Source: a virus. Taken from it: a DNA stretch of 11,057 nt. The notes beneath the pieces were generated by a model. It saw nothing but the letters and a program-made list of their open reading frames with translations. It did not search any database and was not told the origin of the DNA. The position numbers and the translations under genes were made by a program. The DNA is taken from UHGV virus genome UHGV-0152719; one strand, written 5' to 3'. This document shows, piece by piece, positions 1-11,057 of the stretch; position 1 is the stretch's first letter, and every line of letters begins with the position of its first letter.

Positions 1-88
1 GCATACATCGCCTTTATGAAAAGACAGGAAAAGATAAAATTTAAAAACAGTACATTACGAATGCTCAGACCTATCGTTTAAAGGAGTC

Positions 89-1019: not shown

Positions 1020-1304
1020 TTACCGCCGTAACCGTTCCGGCTTCTTCCACTGGTAAGTTTTTTTCTCGCTCTCCTGATACATCGCCACACGTCGACGGTA
1101 TGCCAGCAACTCTAATACCCTGGTTCGTATGTCGCGCATATCCACGCCGTTAAGATCGATACCGTCACAGCGCATCACCTCAGCCACCACACGCGCGTAA
1201 TTTTCAGCGGTGACGGTATCAGGCTGCATGGCCTCCTGTGTGCCAGCCTGCTGGCTGATTCCGGTAACGCGGCGGATTAATCCCAGTAGTTCGGCTTCTG
1301 TCAT
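1020..1304 (-). CDS. Hypothetical protein (94 aa), last gene of the packaging operon
   Basis: ORF directly downstream of the Nu1-like gene on the same strand; ATG at 1304; no recognisable family; weak Shine-Dalgarno. Confidence 0.45.
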   Translation of the reverse strand: MTEAELLGLIRRVTGISQQAGTQEAMQPDTVTAENYARVVAEVMRCDGIDLNGVDMRDIRTRVLELLAYRRRVAMYQESEKKTYQWKKPERLRR

Positions 1305-1315
1305 AGTGCGCTACG

Positions 1316-1858
1316 TTACTTGTCTTTATCCGGCTGAAACTTATCAGGCACATTTCCGGTAGTTTCCATCAGATAATCGGACAGTATTCGCGGGATGTTT
1401 TCATCAAGTTTTGTGCATGCGTTACAGGCTCTGACAACTTCCTTTTTAAGTCCATCCAGCATAGCGGGGGTAATCTGTGGGAAGCGCCTTTGCATGGTAA
1501 GCGGCAAACTGTCCATGATTGAAGAAATCTGACTCGCCAGTTTTGAAAGCACATATATACAAAATTCCGTACTAATAACGTCGCCGCGTTCGCGCTCGTT
1601 TTTAAGCTCCTGCGCCTCCGCCTGCGCTGTCAGCAATCTGATCCTGACTCGCAAAAGTTCATCATTATCAATCTCGCCTTTGTCGTCTGTAATCTGGTTA
1701 ATTGCATTGCTAACCCGATTGTCTATTACGCTGGCAACATCATAAAACGCCTCGCGGCCTTTACGTTCAACGGGAGTCACTCCCCACTTGTCGAACGCTG
1801 TCGCACTTACACGGCAGCTTTGCGCCATGTTTTTTTTGTTCATCAGGTACGATTTCAT
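1316..1858 (-). CDS. terS: Terminase small subunit, lambda Nu1-like
   Basis: C-terminal two thirds (LTAQAEAQELKNERERGDVISTEFCIYVLSKLASQISSIMDSLPLTMQRRFP...IPRILSDYL) closely parallels lambda gpNu1 (LTRAQADAQELKNARDSAEVVETAFCTFVLSRIAGEIASILDGLPLSVQRRFP...IPGLLSEYI); N-terminus (MNKK...FDKWGV...EAFYDVASVI) resembles the Nu1 winged-HTH more loosely. Start uncertain: GTG 1870, ATG 1858 (GGGGA SD-like upstream, chosen), ATG 1843 (aligns with Nu1 MEVNKK). Confidence 0.8.
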   Translation of the reverse strand: MKSYLMNKKNMAQSCRVSATAFDKWGVTPVERKGREAFYDVASVIDNRVSNAINQITDDKGEIDNDELLRVRIRLLTAQAEAQELKNERERGDVISTEFCIYVLSKLASQISSIMDSLPLTMQRRFPQITPAMLDGLKKEVVRACNACTKLDENIPRILSDYLMETTGNVPDKFQPDKDK

Positions 1859-1968
1859 CAATATCCCCACTTAAGTAATGTTTCAGGTTGGTGTGTTGGT
1901 GTTATCTTTCCCTTTTTATTCATAGAGATAGAGCGAAAAACAAAACCACCACCAGCACCCGAAAAAGG

Positions 1969-2012
1969 CTCATAAATAGCGAAAACCCGCGCGCCTTCCG
2001 CCCCGTAGCCTG
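1969..2012 (-). other. Lambda-like cos site (cosN-equivalent plus adjacent conserved flank), upstream of terS
   Basis: Minus strand reads caggctacg-gggcggaaggcg-cgcgggttttcgctatttatga; lambda cos as recalled is caggttacg-gggcggcgacct-cgcgggttttcgctatttatga. 22 contiguous nt identical downstream of cosN, left half of the 12-nt cosN identical, right half differs at 6 positions. Position (about 150 bp upstream of terS start) mirrors the lambda cos-Nu1 arrangement. Confidence 0.6.
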
Positions 2013-2059
2013 CCGGATCGCCGGAAAGGACCCGCCAGCCAGAACGGGCCCTAATTTCA

Positions 2060-2443
2060 TCAACCAATCAACTTATAGCGACCATCCCGTGCATTGCGAC
2101 GTACACGCTCAATCTTGAGGCATAGCGCCGCATCTGGCTTTTTTGGGACAGGTACGCGGCAATATTCAGAAGATCGAGGAATATTGTTTATCCAGTCGAT
2201 CACTTCACTTAAATACCAGGCCTTACGCCCTTCCGTAACCTGTACGCGTTCGGGGAACTCTCCGCGAGCCTCAAGGTTTAGCAATGTGCGACGGCTAAGG
2301 GTAGTAAGTTCCATCACCTGATTCATATCAACAAGGCGTTCACTTAAACGCATTTTGTCAGCAATAGCCTTTAATTCCTCTACTGCTGGATCCGGATACA
2401 TCATTTCGGCAATTGGCTTAAGGTCATTGTAATGATTCTGCAT
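2060..2443 (-). CDS. AlpA-family (excisionase-like) helix-turn-helix DNA-binding protein, 127 aa
   Basis: Motif LTTLSRRTLLNLEARGEFPERVQVTEGRKAWYLSEVIDWI matches the AlpA/phage-excisionase HTH pattern (G-FP ... W..SEV..WI); ATG at 2443 preceded by AAGGGGGA Shine-Dalgarno. Confidence 0.6.
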   Translation of the reverse strand: MQNHYNDLKPIAEMMYPDPAVEELKAIADKMRLSERLVDMNQVMELTTLSRRTLLNLEARGEFPERVQVTEGRKAWYLSEVIDWINNIPRSSEYCRVPVPKKPDAALCLKIERVRRNARDGRYKLIG

Positions 2444-2805: not shown

Positions 2806-3852
2806 TTAGCCAATGCGAACGGTAACAAAACGATTGATGCGGGCCGGTATTGGCTGTGGTGCTGAATGTGTCTGCACATATTCAATAGCCGGATCACCAG
2901 GCACAATATAGTTTTTCGGTGCAAGTTCGGCTTTAGTCAGCCCCATTCGGATTAGCTCCGGATCCTGAATACCGCCATAGGCGACAATCCCCTGAAGAGC
3001 CGTATTGCCAAGCACCATCAAATCAGGATCAAGGAAATGTTTTTCAGTTCCGTCCTCGTCGGTATAACGCCCGCTGTATACAACAATCGCAACATCGCCC
3101 ATATACCCTTTAAAACTCACCGAATCACCAAGGTCTTTAAGAGCCGTTTCCAGTTCGGAATTAGAACCACGACGGGTATCCAGAGCCTCTTTTATCGCTC
3201 TGAATGAACGGTATTTCTTCCATACATTACCGCCCATAATGATGATATTAGTGACGCCCTCACTAAATTCTGCGTAGCTCTCAATATCATCATTTGGATC
3301 AAAAGTTTCTTTATCCTTACCTGACCACTCAGCACCGCCAGACTGAGTGATGATATTTTGTGGTTTAATATTCCAGTCCAGCTCATAACGTTCAATACCA
3401 TCGCCCTCAATGATATTTTTCCCCGTTGTGATTGCCTGAACGGCAAGCCATTCAATACGTGCACGAATAGCTTTAGCCTGATTTACAATCGCCTGTTTAA
3501 CTTTAATATTACGCGCTCCAAAAGCATTGTATTGCTCAGGTGATACACCAGCAGGGCGCACAGCTAACTTATTTGGATCAATGCTGCTTTTCGGCTTCAT
3601 ATAGCCTGGACGAATTGTTTTTGATTCGTACCCTTCGTCACGTGAAACTTTACTACCCACCATAGGAGAACAAAACGCTGCAATTGGGATATTTGGATCG
3701 TCGATTGTATCAAGAATAATATCGCGCGATTCAAACATTACCGAGCGAGTGAAAAACAAACTGGTAAACAACGCATTTAATTTTTTTTGCACATCTTCAG
3801 CATTAGCCACCTGCACAAGCTGTGTAGGCGAATATAAATCAACCATACTCAT
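2806..3852 (-). CDS. Major capsid protein, lambda gpE family
   Basis: Strong similarity to lambda gpE: NIITQSGGAEWSGKDKETFDPNDDIESYA ... RSFRAIKEALDTRRGSNSELETALKDLGDSVSFKGYMGDVAIVVYSGRY vs lambda NITQSGGTEWSKRDKSTYDPTDDIEAYA ... RSFKAVKEKLDTRRGSNSELETAVKDLGKAVSYKGMYGDVAIVVYSGQY. The ORF extends to 3933, but the MSMVDLY start (3852) matches the gpE N-terminus MSMYTT; the alternative ATG at 3846 has better SD spacing. Confidence 0.85.
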   Translation of the reverse strand: MSMVDLYSPTQLVQVANAEDVQKKLNALFTSLFFTRSVMFESRDIILDTIDDPNIPIAAFCSPMVGSKVSRDEGYESKTIRPGYMKPKSSIDPNKLAVRPAGVSPEQYNAFGARNIKVKQAIVNQAKAIRARIEWLAVQAITTGKNIIEGDGIERYELDWNIKPQNIITQSGGAEWSGKDKETFDPNDDIESYAEFSEGVTNIIIMGGNVWKKYRSFRAIKEALDTRRGSNSELETALKDLGDSVSFKGYMGDVAIVVYSGRYTDEDGTEKHFLDPDLMVLGNTALQGIVAYGGIQDPELIRMGLTKAELAPKNYIVPGDPAIEYVQTHSAPQPIPARINRFVTVRIG

Positions 3853-4017
3853 CCTCTTTACATTCATTACAAATAATTGTGAATATATTCTATTACCGAT
3901 GTCTGCTATGCGAATACATGCAACCAAGTGCAATGTTGTATAAAATATGCCGTAACAACTTCAGTGCTGATAATTCGTGTTAATGTATTTACTTCCTTTG
4001 GTTGGGATTTATGTAGC

Positions 4018-4063: not shown

Positions 4064-4486
4064 TTAAAACGGTATATTATCGCCGTACGGATCATCATTC
4101 CCCGACTGTTGTTTTGCCCTGTTCAGTGCGTCAGTGGCCTGCCCCTGCTGGCCTTTTTTGCCGCCCGGTCGCGCCGTTCGCGCACTGATTACGCTGTCTG
4201 CGATAACCTGCCAGCCCCGCCGCGTTTCGCCGTTCTGGCCTGTCCACTGGCTTACCTGCATGTTACCCGCCACGCTCACCAGTTCGCCTTTGTGGTGTTT
4301 TGCCAGTGCGTCGGCCTGTCTGCCAAACGCCAGGACGGATAACCACATCGTCGCCGTTCCGTCATCTGCCTGGCTGCACGGCAGGGGAACCGCCATACTC
4401 GCCATCGCCATTTGTGTCCCTTTGCTGGTGGTCTTTAACTGCGGGTCAGCCACCAGCCGCCCGTAAGCCGCTATCTGTGCTGTCAT
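4064..4486 (-). CDS. ssb: Single-stranded DNA-binding protein (SSB-like OB fold with acidic C-terminal IPF tip)
   Basis: WLSVLAFGRQADALAKHHKGELVSVAGNMQVSQWTGQNGETRRGWQVIADSV parallels E. coli SSB [52 protein letters not shown]; Gly/Gln-rich linker; C-terminus DDPYGDNIPF resembles the SSB DDDIPF tail. Start ATG overlaps the upstream gene's stop (ATGA). Confidence 0.7.
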   Translation of the reverse strand: MTAQIAAYGRLVADPQLKTTSKGTQMAMASMAVPLPCSQADDGTATMWLSVLAFGRQADALAKHHKGELVSVAGNMQVSQWTGQNGETRRGWQVIADSVISARTARPGGKKGQQGQATDALNRAKQQSGNDDPYGDNIPF

Positions 4487-5026: not shown

Positions 5027-6781
5027 TTATAAAAACGCGTCGCAATCCTCTGTTGTTGTCACATTGGTTTGCGTAAGTCCTTTAACCCTGCGCGTTATAT
5101 ATTCACATCCGTAAACTTTCGCCGCTGGCTTCATGGCCTTGCTGAAATCAGCCACGTTTAGCGGCTTGCTTCTGCCTGCGTATGCCATAAACGCCAGATA
5201 GACGCGGTAAAGGCTGTTTCTGGTCGTGTACTTCACGGAATCGCCACCGCCACCCATCATCAGGCCGCGCGCTTCCTCCAGAAAATTCAGAAACTGGCAA
5301 AACTCAATAACCGGATCCGTCTGTTGCTTTATCGCCAGTGCTTCTTCACCGTCGCGCTGTTCAATCAACAAATGTCGCGCCTTTTCTGGATCAGCAAAGT
5401 TTGCCAGCAATCTGCGGATAATCACGGGGATTTCAGCCGCGACCTTCTCCGGTAAATCCTTGTCCTTTTCTGCCTCGCTAACGATATTGTCGAAGCGGAA
5501 AATTACGCGACGACGTGACACACCTCCGGCCCGTTCGGTGAATATCATCGGGTTATTGTTGGTAGCCAGCACCACCGCCCTGATTACCGCCGTAAAACGC
5601 TTTTCATATTTCGGGTTTATTTCCACGGGGTCGCCGCCCGTGATTTTCTTGATGCCCGTGCCTTCGCCTGTATATTTCGGCTGGTCAGCCAGGACGATAA
5701 GACGACTCCCGACAACCTGAGCACGCCCACCAGCATCATCAAGCGAAGTCATTTCAGCGCTTACCGTGTTCTGTTTCCCTGCCAGAAGGCTGGCTATGTG
5801 CGTGAATGTACTCTTTCCGCTCCCGCCGTCTCCGGTGGCCTCAATAAACATCTGCCAGTCGTACCGGTTCGCCATAATCATGTACAGCGCGGCACATATA
5901 CGCATCATCTTGCGTGGGTCTTTTCCGGCTGCGTGATCAAGCCATTTATGAAAGTTTGGCGCGTTGTCGCGGATGTTCTCCCCTGGTGCTGGTGGCGTGT
6001 ACTCAATGCCGTTGTGCGTGGTGATCCAGTTCTCCGGCGAGTGCGGGGAAAATTCCCCCGTTTTCAGATTAAGCACACCATTAGTGAACGGTAGCAAATC
6101 GCCAGACGGCTCGCCCATTGGTTCGGCAATAACTTTTAACGCTTCCACGGCGTTATTGATTGCGCGCTTGCTGAAAGTGGCCCTGTGCTCTGAATAGATC
6201 GCCACCATTTCGCGGCTAAGTTCCATTGTGCTGACCGGACACCATACCCCGCCGCGCCATACGTGAACGATTTCACTTTCAGGATGTACGCAAACGCCAT
6301 CAAAGCGATCGGCAAGCAACTGCGCGCGCTCACTGTCCGCCATCTGCGAAAGTTGCGCCTTTTGCTTTACCGGAAGCTCAATGACCAGACCATCAGAAAG
6401 ATTCTGGCGTTCACGGGCCAGATATTCGCGCCAGTTCTGCACCTCCTGGCCGTGCATACCCTCAGGATAAAAATTTGCATCCTGTACGCCTGCTGCCGCC
6501 AGCTTCTGACCAATCGCCTTTATCATTACAGGCGCAAGATATCCGGCCCTGTATATGCGTGCTGATTTTCGGCCTTCCGGCACAATTTGCAGATTATCCA
6601 GTTCGGATAGCTGCTGCTCCCCAAGCCACACAGGAGGCTCATTATCTCCGGCCATACGCGCATCATGTTCCTGCCATTGTTTCGCGTGTGCCCAGGCATC
6701 ACTACCCGCAAAAATAATGACTTCTGTTCCTTTGTGTTTTATGCCGCGTGACTGCTGTTTTACGTTCGGTGCCAGTTTCAT
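5027..6781 (-). CDS. Primase-helicase, phage/plasmid P4-alpha-like (Walker A GDGGSGKS)
   Basis: 584-aa ORF; Walker A motif TGDGGSGKST followed by helicase-like region; N-terminal primase-like portion; typical P4/PICI pri-rep size and position next to iterons; start ATG overlaps upstream gene stop. Confidence 0.85.
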   Translation of the reverse strand: MKLAPNVKQQSRGIKHKGTEVIIFAGSDAWAHAKQWQEHDARMAGDNEPPVWLGEQQLSELDNLQIVPEGRKSARIYRAGYLAPVMIKAIGQKLAAAGVQDANFYPEGMHGQEVQNWREYLARERQNLSDGLVIELPVKQKAQLSQMADSERAQLLADRFDGVCVHPESEIVHVWRGGVWCPVSTMELSREMVAIYSEHRATFSKRAINNAVEALKVIAEPMGEPSGDLLPFTNGVLNLKTGEFSPHSPENWITTHNGIEYTPPAPGENIRDNAPNFHKWLDHAAGKDPRKMMRICAALYMIMANRYDWQMFIEATGDGGSGKSTFTHIASLLAGKQNTVSAEMTSLDDAGGRAQVVGSRLIVLADQPKYTGEGTGIKKITGGDPVEINPKYEKRFTAVIRAVVLATNNNPMIFTERAGGVSRRRVIFRFDNIVSEAEKDKDLPEKVAAEIPVIIRRLLANFADPEKARHLLIEQRDGEEALAIKQQTDPVIEFCQFLNFLEEARGLMMGGGGDSVKYTTRNSLYRVYLAFMAYAGRSKPLNVADFSKAMKPAAKVYGCEYITRRVKGLTQTNVTTTEDCDAFL

Positions 6782-8434: not shown

Positions 8435-8614
8435 ATGAGCGACACAGAATCAACCAAAACACCATCACCAACTCGTAAGAGACGACGCAAAAATATAGCG
8501 CATGAACATGAATCAGAAAGATTCGCACCTTGTTCGTTTGCTCTTGAGAAATTCCTTAAAGAGCACAGGAAAAAGCTCTCGTTGCAAACCTTGGAACGAA
8601 CCAAATCTGACTGA
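8435..8614 (+). CDS. Hypothetical small basic protein (59 aa)
   Basis: Not in the supplied ORF track (below its apparent length cut-off); ATG at 8435 with AGGA-like SD upstream, in line with the preceding gene and followed by an intrinsic terminator; contains a KRRRK basic stretch. Confidence 0.4.
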   Translation: MSDTESTKTPSPTRKRRRKNIAHEHESERFAPCSFALEKFLKEHRKKLSLQTLERTKSD

Positions 8615-8670
8615 TCACATTGCCCACCAGCCGCAAATGTGGCATTGTTGGTGATGCTTTTGTTTTCCCT

Positions 8671-8710: not shown

Positions 8711-9289
8711 TCACTGAATGCGGTTACCAAAGTAAAACTCAGGCTGATATTCACGTATCAGCCTTTTTTCTTCTTCCTCCAGCTCACGCTTTTTGCGCTT
8801 ACATGCCTGTAGCTCCCTCCCCTTCTCGCTGGCACTTATTTGATATTGCTCTTTACGGCGGGAAAAATCCTGTAATGCACCCCACGGGATACCATAAGCC
8901 CCCGTTTTTCTGATACCTGGTATCACATTTCTGAATACCCAGTTACTGAAACGATGAGCAAATGTGCCCGGCGTCGTTGCTTTGCGGCTGCGGGCTATTA
9001 GTTTGTAGAAACCTGACTCAGAGATAATTCTCATATTCTGATTTCCTCCTGGGGTGTAAGTTAAATTTACTCCCTTTTCATCATCATCAAGCATCTGCAA
9101 CGCCGTACGCGAATTGGTTAGTTCCAGCGCAGCACAAACATCTTTTGCAACAAACCACGGATCGCCGTTCAGATACACCACACGAACGTTCACACTATCA
9201 AAGCGCAGAACGACGAGATCACGAATATCGCAGAATTTTTTCACTGGACGAGCGTACCCCTTGCCCGTCACGGCAATATTTTTATTCAT
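8711..9289 (-). CDS. Bro-N domain protein (phage antirepressor-like), 192 aa
   Basis: N-terminal region VVLRFDSVNVRVVYLNGDPWFVAKDVCAALEL...LQMLDDDEKGV matches the Bro-N/antirepressor N-terminal domain pattern; C-terminal charged coiled-coil-like tail. Confidence 0.75.
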   Translation of the reverse strand: MNKNIAVTGKGYARPVKKFCDIRDLVVLRFDSVNVRVVYLNGDPWFVAKDVCAALELTNSRTALQMLDDDEKGVNLTYTPGGNQNMRIISESGFYKLIARSRKATTPGTFAHRFSNWVFRNVIPGIRKTGAYGIPWGALQDFSRRKEQYQISASEKGRELQACKRKKRELEEEEKRLIREYQPEFYFGNRIQ

Positions 9290-9345: not shown

Positions 9346-9603
9346 TTATTGCTGTTTTGTTTTTCCAGGTTTCCATCCAGGATGCCACTCACCACGGATC
9401 CATGCCTGAACCTCTGAAAGTCGATACCCTGCAGCACGTTCACCGATCTTGATACGTCGCGGGAATTTACCTGCCTGCTCCATTTTCCAGCGTGTTGAGT
9501 TTGCCAGCGTGGTAAGTGCTATGCACTCTTTTTCACGAATGAACCGATCAATGTCCTTCATTGTGCGCAAATCGTTTTCATCAACAAGAGAATAAATTGC
9601 CAT
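9346..9603 (-). CDS. alpA: AlpA-family transcriptional regulator / excisionase-like protein
   Basis: 85 aa with HTH IALTTLANSTRWKMEQAGKFPRRIKIGERAAGYRLSEVQAWI typical of AlpA (prophage CP4-57 regulatory protein family); AAGAGG SD; immediately downstream of the integrase. Confidence 0.8.
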   Translation of the reverse strand: MAIYSLVDENDLRTMKDIDRFIREKECIALTTLANSTRWKMEQAGKFPRRIKIGERAAGYRLSEVQAWIRGEWHPGWKPGKTKQQ

Positions 9604-9604
9604 A

Positions 9605-10846
9605 TCACACCACCTCTTTATTAAGCTCGATAACGTTGTTGTTAAATCCTGCTATCGTATTAAGGTAATTAACCCACATATTAAGCACCTCAAGTTTTTT
9701 CTTTATATGCCTGCTTTTATTGTAAACACCAGCAACCCCTTTCACTTTATGACCTAAAAGAAGTTCGACAATATAAGGATCCGCCCCCATATCATTAAGC
9801 GTAGTGGAAAATGTGCGCCTGAAATCATGTATGCACCACAAGCCATTAGTATCATGACCAAGACGCCTGCATATTCTGTTTGCAGCCCCTGTTATTGTCG
9901 CCCTTTGCAAAGCACAACCGACAACATAACCGCAATTTTTTGTTTCTGCGTAAAGATTAACGATCCATTGTTTTATTCCGTCAGGAACAGGCCTTACTAT
10001 AGCCTCCTTGTTTTTGCTGTGCTCTTTTGGGACTGTCCATACCCAGTTTTTTAAATCCCATTCGTCCCAGGTGGATAGCCTCGCCTCCTGCTGTCGGCAA
10101 CCAAACACCAGGCAGATAACCATTATTCTTCGGTTATATATTGATGACAGAGTTAGCAAATTATTACCGTAAGCATAAGACCATACATCAGCGGTTTCAT
10201 TGATATTAAGAACGCGATCCCTTATACCGGATGAGCGCCCGACATAACTTACGTTAATATCTCCAAAGGGATCGCACGCGATGTATTGCCTGACGCGACA
10301 AAAACGCAACGCCTGTTTGATATCAAGAAAAATTGCACCAGACATAACAGGCGCATTTTTTTTGATCCTGTCAAAGACGGTAAGCCATGTGTGTAATTTG
10401 CACTGTTCTATAGCCATATCACCGATATAGGGGAAGATATGCTTTTCAAATCGTTTTATTAAATATTCATGCTCTTTTCTGGCTGTTGTGGCGTGATTGT
10501 CGTACCAGTAAAACAGCGCATCCCTTACGGTCACTGGTTGCATAGTTTTTTCGGCAGCAAGTTTTATTTGCCTGCGGGGGTCCAGATTTTCAGCCAGCCA
10601 TTCACGGCACTGATCACGCATGCGCCTGGCCGTTGCAAGAGACATGTCAGGATAGCGACCAAGTGTAAGCCATACCGGAGGGGATTCCCTGCCACCAAGA
10701 CGATAGTAAAAAACAAAGCTGATCCCCCCAACCATGCTTACACGCACAGACAACCCGCGCCCATCCGCTATTGTTTTTTGTTTGTCCTGCCGTTTTCCGA
10801 CAAGACTCTTTAACAGTTTGTCACTGAGTTTGTTTTCAATAGCCAT
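9605..10846 (-). CDS. int: Tyrosine site-specific integrase, P4-type
   Basis: 413 aa; N-terminal P4-integrase-like arm-binding region (MAIENKLSDKLLKSL...GRGLSVRV); catalytic-domain motifs including HDFRRTFST and the GVAGVYNKS tyrosine region; GAGGG SD upstream. Confidence 0.9.
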   Translation of the reverse strand: MAIENKLSDKLLKSLVGKRQDKQKTIADGRGLSVRVSMVGGISFVFYYRLGGRESPPVWLTLGRYPDMSLATARRMRDQCREWLAENLDPRRQIKLAAEKTMQPVTVRDALFYWYDNHATTARKEHEYLIKRFEKHIFPYIGDMAIEQCKLHTWLTVFDRIKKNAPVMSGAIFLDIKQALRFCRVRQYIACDPFGDINVSYVGRSSGIRDRVLNINETADVWSYAYGNNLLTLSSIYNRRIMVICLVFGCRQQEARLSTWDEWDLKNWVWTVPKEHSKNKEAIVRPVPDGIKQWIVNLYAETKNCGYVVGCALQRATITGAANRICRRLGHDTNGLWCIHDFRRTFSTTLNDMGADPYIVELLLGHKVKGVAGVYNKSRHIKKKLEVLNMWVNYLNTIAGFNNNVIELNKEVV

Positions 10847-10918: not shown

Positions 10919-11057
10919 AAACCGCGAAAAACTGGAAAGGTGATGAACGGTCATCAAAAGCATGGAAAACGACATTCCAGACGCAGCAAGGGTTTCAGTG
11001 GAGTTGGCGAACGATGCGGGCAACTACGGTGAGATGATAGACATAAATCGCCTTCAC

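Follow-up and report, generated by a model that had tools for sequence, protein, structure and literature searches.

Redirection of helper packaging by a satellite-encoded small terminase subunit (TerS) is a known concept and not a new one. In Staphylococcus aureus pathogenicity islands (SaPIs), a TerS that is encoded without a large terminase subunit (TerL) redirects the TerL of the helper phage (as summarised in PMC6739421); some Gram-negative phage-inducible chromosomal islands (PICIs) carry a terS homolog (Fillol-Salom et al., 2018; PMC6092414), and among the core components of PICIs the small terminase is listed as the one that redirects packaging (de Sousa et al., 2023; PMC10085698). The gene considered here is a terS in the virus genome UHGV-0152719, a stretch of 11,057 nucleotides that was analysed as a whole and is referred to below as the window. 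An initial annotation, made from the sequence alone, had proposed a Nu1-like TerS that hijacks helper packaging, and had considered it notable that no TerL accompanies it; TerL is indeed missing, since neither TerL (three types) nor RppA as tblastn queries found anything in the window, but in PICIs a TerS that lacks a TerL partner is, according to the literature, the rule, and terS is listed as a core component (PMC10085698; PMC6092414). The gene probably encodes the satellite's own cos-type TerS, which would bind the satellite's own cosB and use the TerL of a lambda-type helper. New in this analysis are a corrected domain picture of the protein, the modularity of its DNA-binding domain together with cosB, and the equivalence of its cassette with that of the Rpp proteins.

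The closest described phage proteins, gpNu1 of lambda, gp1 of N15 and gp1 of phage 21, belong to the same family as the satellite TerS and share its length and its three-part layout of winged helix-turn-helix (HTH) domain, central helices and C-terminal domain; the phage genes and the satellite terS alike lie just downstream of a cosQ-cosN-cosB site. In the phages an overlapping TerL gene follows downstream, whereas the satellite has none, and the C-terminal segment of the satellite protein forms a separate class that ends in a 13-aa tail (TGNVPDKFQPDKDK) for which phage TerS has no counterpart. N15 comes closest at the DNA-binding end: its recognition region resembles that of the satellite, and the candidate R3 site of the satellite lies at the same distance from cosN, although the motif at this position reads GGTGGT in the satellite and GTTGTT in N15; cosB spans 133 bp in the satellite, shorter than the 178 bp of lambda and longer than the 76 bp of N15. 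The Rpp proteins (RppA, RppB and RppC; PMC6739421) occupy the same slot: in both cases a lambda-like cosN and a private cosB directly precede the gene, and the rest of the islands agrees at 90–96% identity. The presumed outcome, a helper terminase redirected to the satellite cos, is shared as well; yet the Rpp proteins measure 144–153 aa, lack the TerL-binding half and act only in complex with the helper TerS, whereas the satellite TerS is full-length. SaPI TerS differs in serving headful (pac) packaging alongside a separate inhibitor, Ppi; the satellite system is of the cos type, which requires a nick at cosN and termination at cosQ, and a Ppi-like gene was not identified. Capsid-forming PICIs (cf-PICIs) such as EcCIEDL933 are also satellites with their own packaging and capsid genes, but they additionally encode TerL, portal, protease and connectors, while the island in the window has only capsid-like and decoration-like genes besides terS.

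Judged from its sequence, the terS product is a full-length cos small terminase of the Nu1 family, as the initial annotation had it, and RefSeq already labels genes of this type as terminase small subunit. The Pfam profile PF07471 (Phage_Nu1) matches with E=8.8e-24 and 84.4 bits (cutoff 30) over aa 64–147 only, equivalent to profile positions 78–161 of 164; PHROG 57, "terminase small subunit", covers aa 2–173 (E=1.7e-50). By BLASTP the protein is 37% identical to lambda Nu1 (E=4e-36), with gaps confined to the first ~71 residues and a gapless alignment over aa 72–167, in agreement with the collinearity of the C-terminal part and gpNu1 that had been proposed. The AlphaFold2 model (mean predicted local distance difference test score, pLDDT, 73) consists of a strand-helix-helix-hairpin-helix arrangement followed by long helices; the top Foldseek match in the Protein Data Bank (PDB) was the DNA-binding domain of lambda TerS (7lwr_A; template modelling score, TM, 0.72; root-mean-square deviation, rmsd, 2.0 Å; 52 columns), at a weak E=0.057, and the next matches were the winged-HTH domains of MerR, BldC, RacA and excisionase. 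A profile of 42 TerS family members matched the lambda TerS entries 6hn7_B and 1j9i strongly; a PDB search with the single sequence gave no meaningful match, so that the lambda TerS entries were reached by the family profile only, and neither search found a solved structure that spans the TerL-binding C-terminal region. An NCBIfam scan held no model for TerS, nor for the 94-aa protein and the AlpA-like protein encoded beside it. The gene has a ribosome-binding site, GGGGA, at 1864–1868, 5 bases 5' of its ATG; a promoter scan of 900–2600 found none near terS, and the gene is therefore probably transcribed from upstream within the late operon.

The comparison by domain changes the picture from which a hijacking role had originally been argued. 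The N-terminus had been described as diverged and only loosely similar to Nu1; aa 1–55 are in fact 35–37% identical to lambda Nu1 and 29% to the 21-type TerS of PhiR5_1, but they reach 56% with N15 gp1, by which the N-terminus is classed as a recognizable N15-type domain. The central region (aa 72–130) starts at a conserved AQAEAQELKN stretch, the point at which the natural chimeras described below switch parents, and aligns without gaps at 56% identity to lambda Nu1, 54% to N15 gp1 and 59% to the 21-type TerS. In the following segment, aa 131–167, identity amounts to 35% with lambda Nu1, 35% with N15 gp1 and 43% with the 21-type TerS, values that can be calibrated against the matching segments of the phages themselves, 78% between lambda and N15 and 41% between lambda and the 21 type. 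Lambda–21 hybrid work of the Feiss laboratory reportedly found the terminase subunits of these two phages not to be interchangeable. The specificity of TerL binding resides in TerS's C-terminal half, where the last 30–40 residues are important (PMC9026076), and lambda- and 21-specific terminases cannot package each other's DNA (PMC4669245). The "conserved TerL-interaction region" of the initial annotation does not correspond to these numbers: it is the central part that is conserved, and the TerL-specificity-like segment is better described as a distinct satellite class and is the least conserved part of the protein. This segment keeps the family-invariant residues A144, P156 and Y162, with N146 and L137/K138 nearly invariant.

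The satellite also has its own cos site, as had been presumed, with a lambda-like cosN 145 nt before the terS ATG and a cosB unlike that of the helper. The lambda-identical CGCGGGTTTTCGCTATTTATGA occurs as a single copy in the window (0 expected by chance), and past this stretch the satellite sequence is unrelated to lambda cosB; the satellite cosB stretch 1882–1991 includes GGTGGT at bp 54–59 and the block ACACCAACC. Among 80 related IMG/VR loci, whose TerS is 82–100% identical to that of the window, cos could be parsed in 75, and in 73 of these cosN and the terS ATG are again 145 nt apart. Across the related loci TGGTGGTGGTTTTGTT is near-invariant and the 14 bp preceding it are variable; it lies where lambda and N15 have R3, their critical site of TerS binding; in N15, R3 comprises bp 48–59 (GAGGTTGTTGTT) with bp 54–59 as its most important part (PMC4669245). 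The cosN 12-mer itself is that of lambda, GGGCGGCGACCT, in 60 of the parsed loci and GGGCGGAAGGCG, as in the window, in 4; variants occur in 16 of the 75 (the window, but also L011, L102 and L059–L068), with all changes within bp 6–12, and one of them belongs to a satellite embedded in a helper with a lambda-type terminase. The cohesive ends of such a variant-cosN satellite and its helper would not anneal to each other. Changes at cosN bp 7–12 are tolerated, whereas changes in the left half and in cosQ are not (Feiss and colleagues, PMC4669245). A second, inverted cos, as present in islands at the roxA/phoQ site, was sought in the window without success; its cos is single.

Two minor observations concern the cosB motif. 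Weak inverted matches to the motif at the R3 position lie in the intergenic region of the Bro zone (8452–8467, minus strand, 3 mismatches; 8649–8664, plus strand, 2 mismatches), and no shuffled sequence reached three matches in total. In the Rpp-type cosB of EcCICFT073 (L016, ~14624–14632), bp 55–63 from cosN read ACCACCACC; this sequence and the GGTGGTGGT core of the terS-type cosB (bp ~50–58; window 1939–1954) are reverse complements, although RppA and the satellite TerS have no detectable sequence similarity.

The closer relatives of the window TerS form a group sampled only in satellites. Among 50,697 phage records the best match was N15 gp1 with 47% identity, and the C-terminal 66 aa alone reached at most 49% with any phage match; with these values, recent capture from a sequenced phage was ruled out. 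In a large protein collection, all relatives above 55% identity whose context was examined lie in late modules of PICIs or helper-embedded PICIs, and none beside TerL; such a module consists of major capsid protein (MCP), head decoration protein (HDPD), an HTH or c1502-like gene, cos and terS, usually followed by the 94-aa gene. TerL adjoins terS in 0 of the 80 IMG/VR loci, whereas in true phage relatives such as P0135 a gpA-type TerL follows. The satellites that carry this terS are integrated at five or more sites: the portal gene (L001, L021), capsid gene E (L008–L010, which are Enterobacter-group contigs, and L102 in Escherichia coli), tRNA-Pro near yejM (L011), roxA/phoQ (L005–7, L012, L017–18) and cspD/clpS (L103). 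The terS genes are under purifying selection and are not decaying; Nei-Gojobori ratios of nonsynonymous to synonymous substitution rates (dN/dS) among four satellite terS genes were 0.13–0.21 overall and similar in each domain, with 0.13–0.17 in the C-terminal domain; this applies also to the pair of C-terminal alleles with dS of about 1.3.

Two groups of 194-aa proteins, both in satellites, are natural TerS chimeras. In P0103 the N-terminal ~85 aa are 96% identical to the TerS of a CFT073 prophage (called TerS-21 in PMC9026076) and the C-terminal part is 90% identical to the window protein; in P0122 the N-terminal ~85 aa are 91% identical to PhiR5_1 TerS and the C-terminal part, a different satellite allele, is 72% identical to that of the window. 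The cosB 5' of P0103 is of the 21 type and nearly identical to that of PhiR5_1; an N15-type domain is accompanied by the GGT-repeat cosB and a 21-type domain by a 21-type cosB. Among 157 cluster representatives, the N15-like and 21-like DNA-binding types occur in free combination with two or more C-terminal alleles of satellites; together with the matching cosB types, this indicates that the DNA-binding domain travels with its own cosB, and that the C-terminal half defines the satellite protein. No satellite-type C-terminal half was found beside a TerL gene. The chimeras follow the same logic, with a similar joint, as the lambda-N15hy4 and lambda-21 hybrids of the Feiss laboratory, in which the DNA-binding half and the TerL-specificity half proved separable (PMC4669245; PMC9026076); in the laboratory hybrids, however, both halves are of phage origin and fit a known TerL, whereas the satellite chimeras join a phage-type front to a back half without a cognate TerL gene.

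Two particular loci may be mentioned beside this comparison. L102 (E. coli ST69, NZ_CP102488.1) is a helper-embedded PICI that carries this terS type in capsid gene E, the gene it shares with the founding element 11capE, which is said to lack terS; its cargo includes a TIR-domain gene and an abortive-infection gene. L039 encodes at 3–842 a 280-aa fragment with 99% identity to lambda gpA, and a satellite MCP-HDPD-AlpA-cos-terS module lies ~1 kb downstream of this fragment; the locus may be a rearranged or truncated composite.

The slot of terS in the late module is that of rppA. EcCICFT073 and the island of O55:H7 CB9615 both occupy the roxA/phoQ site. One stretch, which runs from the capsid gene as far as cosN, is shared at 95.6% identity, and a second, which opens with the c1504-like gene, at 89.6%; in the interval EcCICFT073 carries cosB and rppA (144 aa), and the CB9615 island cosB and terS (180 aa). 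RppA and the satellite TerS have no BLASTP similarity, and the TerS family profile matched RppC at no better than E=0.16. Of the packaging mechanisms of E. coli PICIs, only that of Rpp has so far been elucidated, yet the terS route is commoner: the terS cassette was found in 762 of 5,426 complete E. coli genomes (14%; megablast, at least 80% coverage), about eight times as often as the rppA cassette (97 genomes), a count that leaves out RppC-type genes as too divergent for megablast. The helper is accessible in three composites, two with the satellite in the portal gene and one in capsid gene E; its TerS is 98–99% identical to lambda Nu1 and its TerL 99.5–99.8% identical to lambda gpA, from which it does not differ in the first 60 aa.

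A separate feature of roxA/phoQ-site PICIs is that the cosB-terS or cosB-rppA cassette is flanked by two inverted cosQ-cosN copies. L017 (4779–5802) and L018 (4784–5807) are otherwise collinear islands set apart by the inversion of precisely this 1,026-bp cassette, and inverted-cos cassettes also occur in L012 (15976–16912) and L016 (14530–15338). Inversion of the cassette could flip the direction of packaging, and these cassettes are relevant to a question raised in the literature, namely why two cos sites are present in some PICIs.

A role in packaging hijack is the best reading of terS because a full TerS without TerL lies adjacent to the satellite's own cos, is maintained by purifying selection and occupies the rppA slot. 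The argument by which the initial annotation had reached this role fails at the same time: instead of a helper-matching C-terminus joined to a satellite-specific N-terminus, the pattern is nearly the reverse, with a DNA-binding domain that is swapped together with cosB and a C-terminal half that is satellite-specific. The earlier observation is thus partly confirmed, and its interpretation partly supported. Family, cos placement, the satellite-only clade, selection, the Rpp slot and the identity of the helper TerL are observed; DNA binding, TerL recruitment and helper interference by the satellite TerS are predicted steps of the following mechanism. When the helper is induced, the island would excise and replicate; the N15-type winged-HTH domain would bind the GGT-repeat element at bp 50–65 of the satellite cosB, the central helices would oligomerise, and the TerS complex would place the helper TerL (gpA) on the satellite cosN. 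The helper TerL would nick this cosN, and satellite concatemers would be packaged into helper-built heads; since TerL would be diverted from the helper's Nu1 and cos, satellite transfer would be promoted and the helper would suffer interference. Reading of cosB by TerS is indicated indirectly by the near-invariant motif at the R3 position and by the covariation of domain type and cosB type; two precedents are the engineered N15-lambda hybrid TerS that works with lambda TerL on cosB-N15 (PMC4669245) and the redirection of helper TerL by SaPI TerS mentioned above.

Several points weigh against this reading. The TerL-specificity segment is only 35% identical to that of the lambda-type helper Nu1, and thus no closer than lambda is to the 21 type (41%); engagement of TerL is the least secure step of the mechanism, as the C-terminal segment is collinear but satellite-specific. 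The satellites of the three composites have different C-terminal alleles, although the N-termini of the helper TerL are identical; tracking of the helper TerL type by the C-terminal alleles is unsupported in this small sample. In some satellites the DNA-binding domain and cosB are nearly identical to those of a phage, so that a cos specificity of their own cannot be the whole point. The window cosN differs from that of lambda at 6 of 12 positions, which may reduce cutting, although bp 7–12 are reported to be tolerant (PMC4669245). Finally, a literature search found no experiment or functional study on the Nu1-type TerS of Gram-negative PICIs.

A tentative elaboration, less probable than the basic reading, shifts the adaptive core of the protein from the DNA-binding domain to the satellite-specific C-terminal half, which would either capture lambda-type TerL in a manner unlike Nu1 or insulate the satellite protein from mixing with the helper TerS; any DNA-binding domain of a helper type could then be added, along with the cosB that it matches, through recombination at the conserved AQA(D/E)AQELKN joint. 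If this elaboration holds, E. coli satellites carry a plug-and-play packaging-specificity cassette that is interchangeable with cosB and rpp, and where the cassette lies between inverted cos copies and occurs in both orientations, as in some islands, its inversion would flip the direction of packaging. The question raised is how a C-terminus so unlike that of Nu1 deals with lambda gpA; the satellite C-terminal half is a natural probe of the TerS-TerL interface, as it either binds gpA at 35% identity or works without binding. If terS acts as the satellite's own TerS, the gene would decide which DNA lambda-type terminases package in a large fraction of E. coli strains, O55:H7 and O157:H7 included, with a bearing on the satellite-borne spread of defence and virulence genes.

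Among the alternatives, a route resembling that of Rpp fares best, but it is rather unlikely. The satellite TerS would form mixed oligomers with the helper Nu1 through the central helices; the C-termini of the helper subunits would hold TerL, while the satellite DNA-binding domain would give cosB specificity, in the same division of labour as in the Rpp-TerS complex, where the helper supplies TerL. The shared slot, the strong conservation of the central region relative to lambda (56%, against 35% in the terminal TerL-specificity segment), the failure of the C-terminal alleles to track the helper TerL, and the Rpp precedent itself, which requires the helper TerS (PMC6739421; PMC9026076), are consistent with this route. 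The full-length C-terminal domain, with its family-invariant residues and purifying selection, is hard to reconcile with it, given that Rpp proteins of 144–153 aa manage without a TerL-binding region; furthermore, Rpp touches the DNA-binding domain of TerS and not its central helices, and the satellite TerS has no detectable similarity to RppA or RppC.

It is more doubtful still that the satellite TerS is mainly a decoy for interference, one that titrates the helper TerL or poisons terminase assembly and thereby lowers helper yield, while the satellite is packaged through its lambda-like cosN by the helper terminase alone. Plasmids with only the cos sites of EcCICFT073, and thus a foreign cosB, are still moved by lambda, albeit with reduced efficiency (PMC6092414), and the satellite-specific C-terminus could conceivably be tuned for tight but unproductive binding. 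The fixed spacing of 145 nt, the near-invariant motif at the R3 position and the covariation of domain and cosB argue instead that the protein reads the adjacent site, and packaging by lambda or 21 terminase from an N15-type cosB does not exceed 5e-4 of the cognate value (PMC4669245). Passive capture of a spare helper late gene without any satellite-specific role is very improbable: helper-embedded PICIs do take late genes from prophages (PMC10111431), and the DNA-binding halves of some satellite TerS are 91–96% identical to phage TerS, but TerS proteins in phage records reach no more than 47% identity over the whole length, the C-terminal half is satellite-only, terS is under purifying selection, and the module is conserved across at least five integration sites as well as in 14% of the complete E. 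coli genomes.

Table 1. Features of the terS gene, the adjoining cos site and the remainder of the island in the window.
Feature	Coordinates	Strand	Remarks
terS	1316..1858	minus	180 aa; ATG at 1858, stop codon 1316-1318; Nu1-family small terminase
Winged HTH DNA-binding domain, N15 type	1694..1858	minus	terS aa 1-55; identity comparison, AlphaFold2 model and Foldseek
Central helical region, counterpart of Nu1 self-association region	1469..1645	minus	terS aa 72-130; best conserved part
Satellite-specific C-terminal domain	1319..1468	minus	terS aa 131-180; counterpart of Nu1 TerL-specificity region
cosQ-side flank of cosN, GCGGGTCCTTTCCGGCGATCCGGCAGGCTACG	2004..2035	minus	2 mismatches to helper/lambda cos
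cosN 12-mer, GGGCGGAAGGCG	1992..2003	minus	variant of lambda GGGCGGCGACCT, differing only at bp 7-12
22 bp right of cosN (lambda bp 13-34), CGCGGGTTTTCGCTATTTATGA	1970..1991	minus	exact lambda match
Candidate TerS binding site, R3 equivalent, TGGTGGTGGTTTTGTT	1939..1954	minus	bp 50-65 from cosN; near-invariant
Second conserved cosB block, ACACCAACCTGAA	1882..1894	minus	possible inverted second site (putative function); conserved in E. coli satellites with N15-type domain
94-aa conserved gene directly downstream of terS	1020..1304	minus	phrog_1561
Second AlpA-like HTH gene, directly upstream of cos	2060..2443	minus	Pfam Phage_AlpA, E=1.3e-08; conserved late module
Head decoration protein, gpD-like (HDPD)	2455-2796	minus	Pfam HDPD
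Major capsid protein, gpE-like (MCP)	2806-3933	minus	coordinates of the open reading frame (ORF); Pfam Phage_cap_E; homologs annotated at 346 aa
Single-stranded DNA-binding protein (SSB)	4064-4486	minus	
D5-type primase	5027-6781	minus	
Bro-N	8711-9289	minus	
AlpA (alpA)	9346-9603	minus	
Integrase (int)	9605-10846	minus	
att core with portal-gene bases	1..14		one island end
att core with portal-gene bases	11047..11057		other island end

The window as a whole is identified, from its ends and its relatives, as a complete 11-kb helper-embedded PICI, a type of element that Tommasini, Mageeney and Williams have described (PMC10111431). Its first 14 nt and last 11 nt match nt ~820–836 of an intact lambda-type portal gene, the core ATCGCCTT is repeated at both ends, with the same junctions in L001, and E. 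coli relatives at 95.5–95.7% identity lie within the portal gene of lambda-type prophages, which they divide into two parts; att ends within the portal gene and relatives that split portal genes mark the window as a complete element. Further PICI traits are int, alpA, a primase, mostly unidirectional genes, the main ones all on the minus strand, and a late zone with capsid-like genes; scans for tRNA and Rfam families in the window were empty. The gpE-like capsid and gpD-like decoration genes stand in the window without a portal, protease or scaffold gene; when the capsid and decoration homologs of EcCICFT073 were deleted, interference with lambda was not relieved (PMC6092414).

The late gene order MCP-HDPD-HTH-cos-terS-94aa recurs in related loci, where the AlpA-like HTH gene is present in 45 of 80 and a c1502-like gene takes its place in 28 of 80. 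The 94-aa gene directly follows both terS- and rppA-type cassettes; its products are 74–88% identical to EcCICFT073 c1504, the gene that follows rppA, and that of the window is 74% identical to it. The protein had no Pfam or NCBIfam match; its AlphaFold2 model consists of three helices, and Foldseek against the PDB was uninformative. A TerL-like or otherwise known packaging factor was considered for it and rejected, as neither family nor fold supports it and no likeness to the gpA N-terminus was apparent by eye; the protein may be a packaging or interference partner. The ~1 kb at the island end beyond this gene (1–1019) has no credible ORF, tRNA or Rfam match and consists of modules of 100–150 bp that recur in varied combinations in other satellites; within the window, internal duplications pair 538–581 with 882–925 and 765–802 with 820–857.

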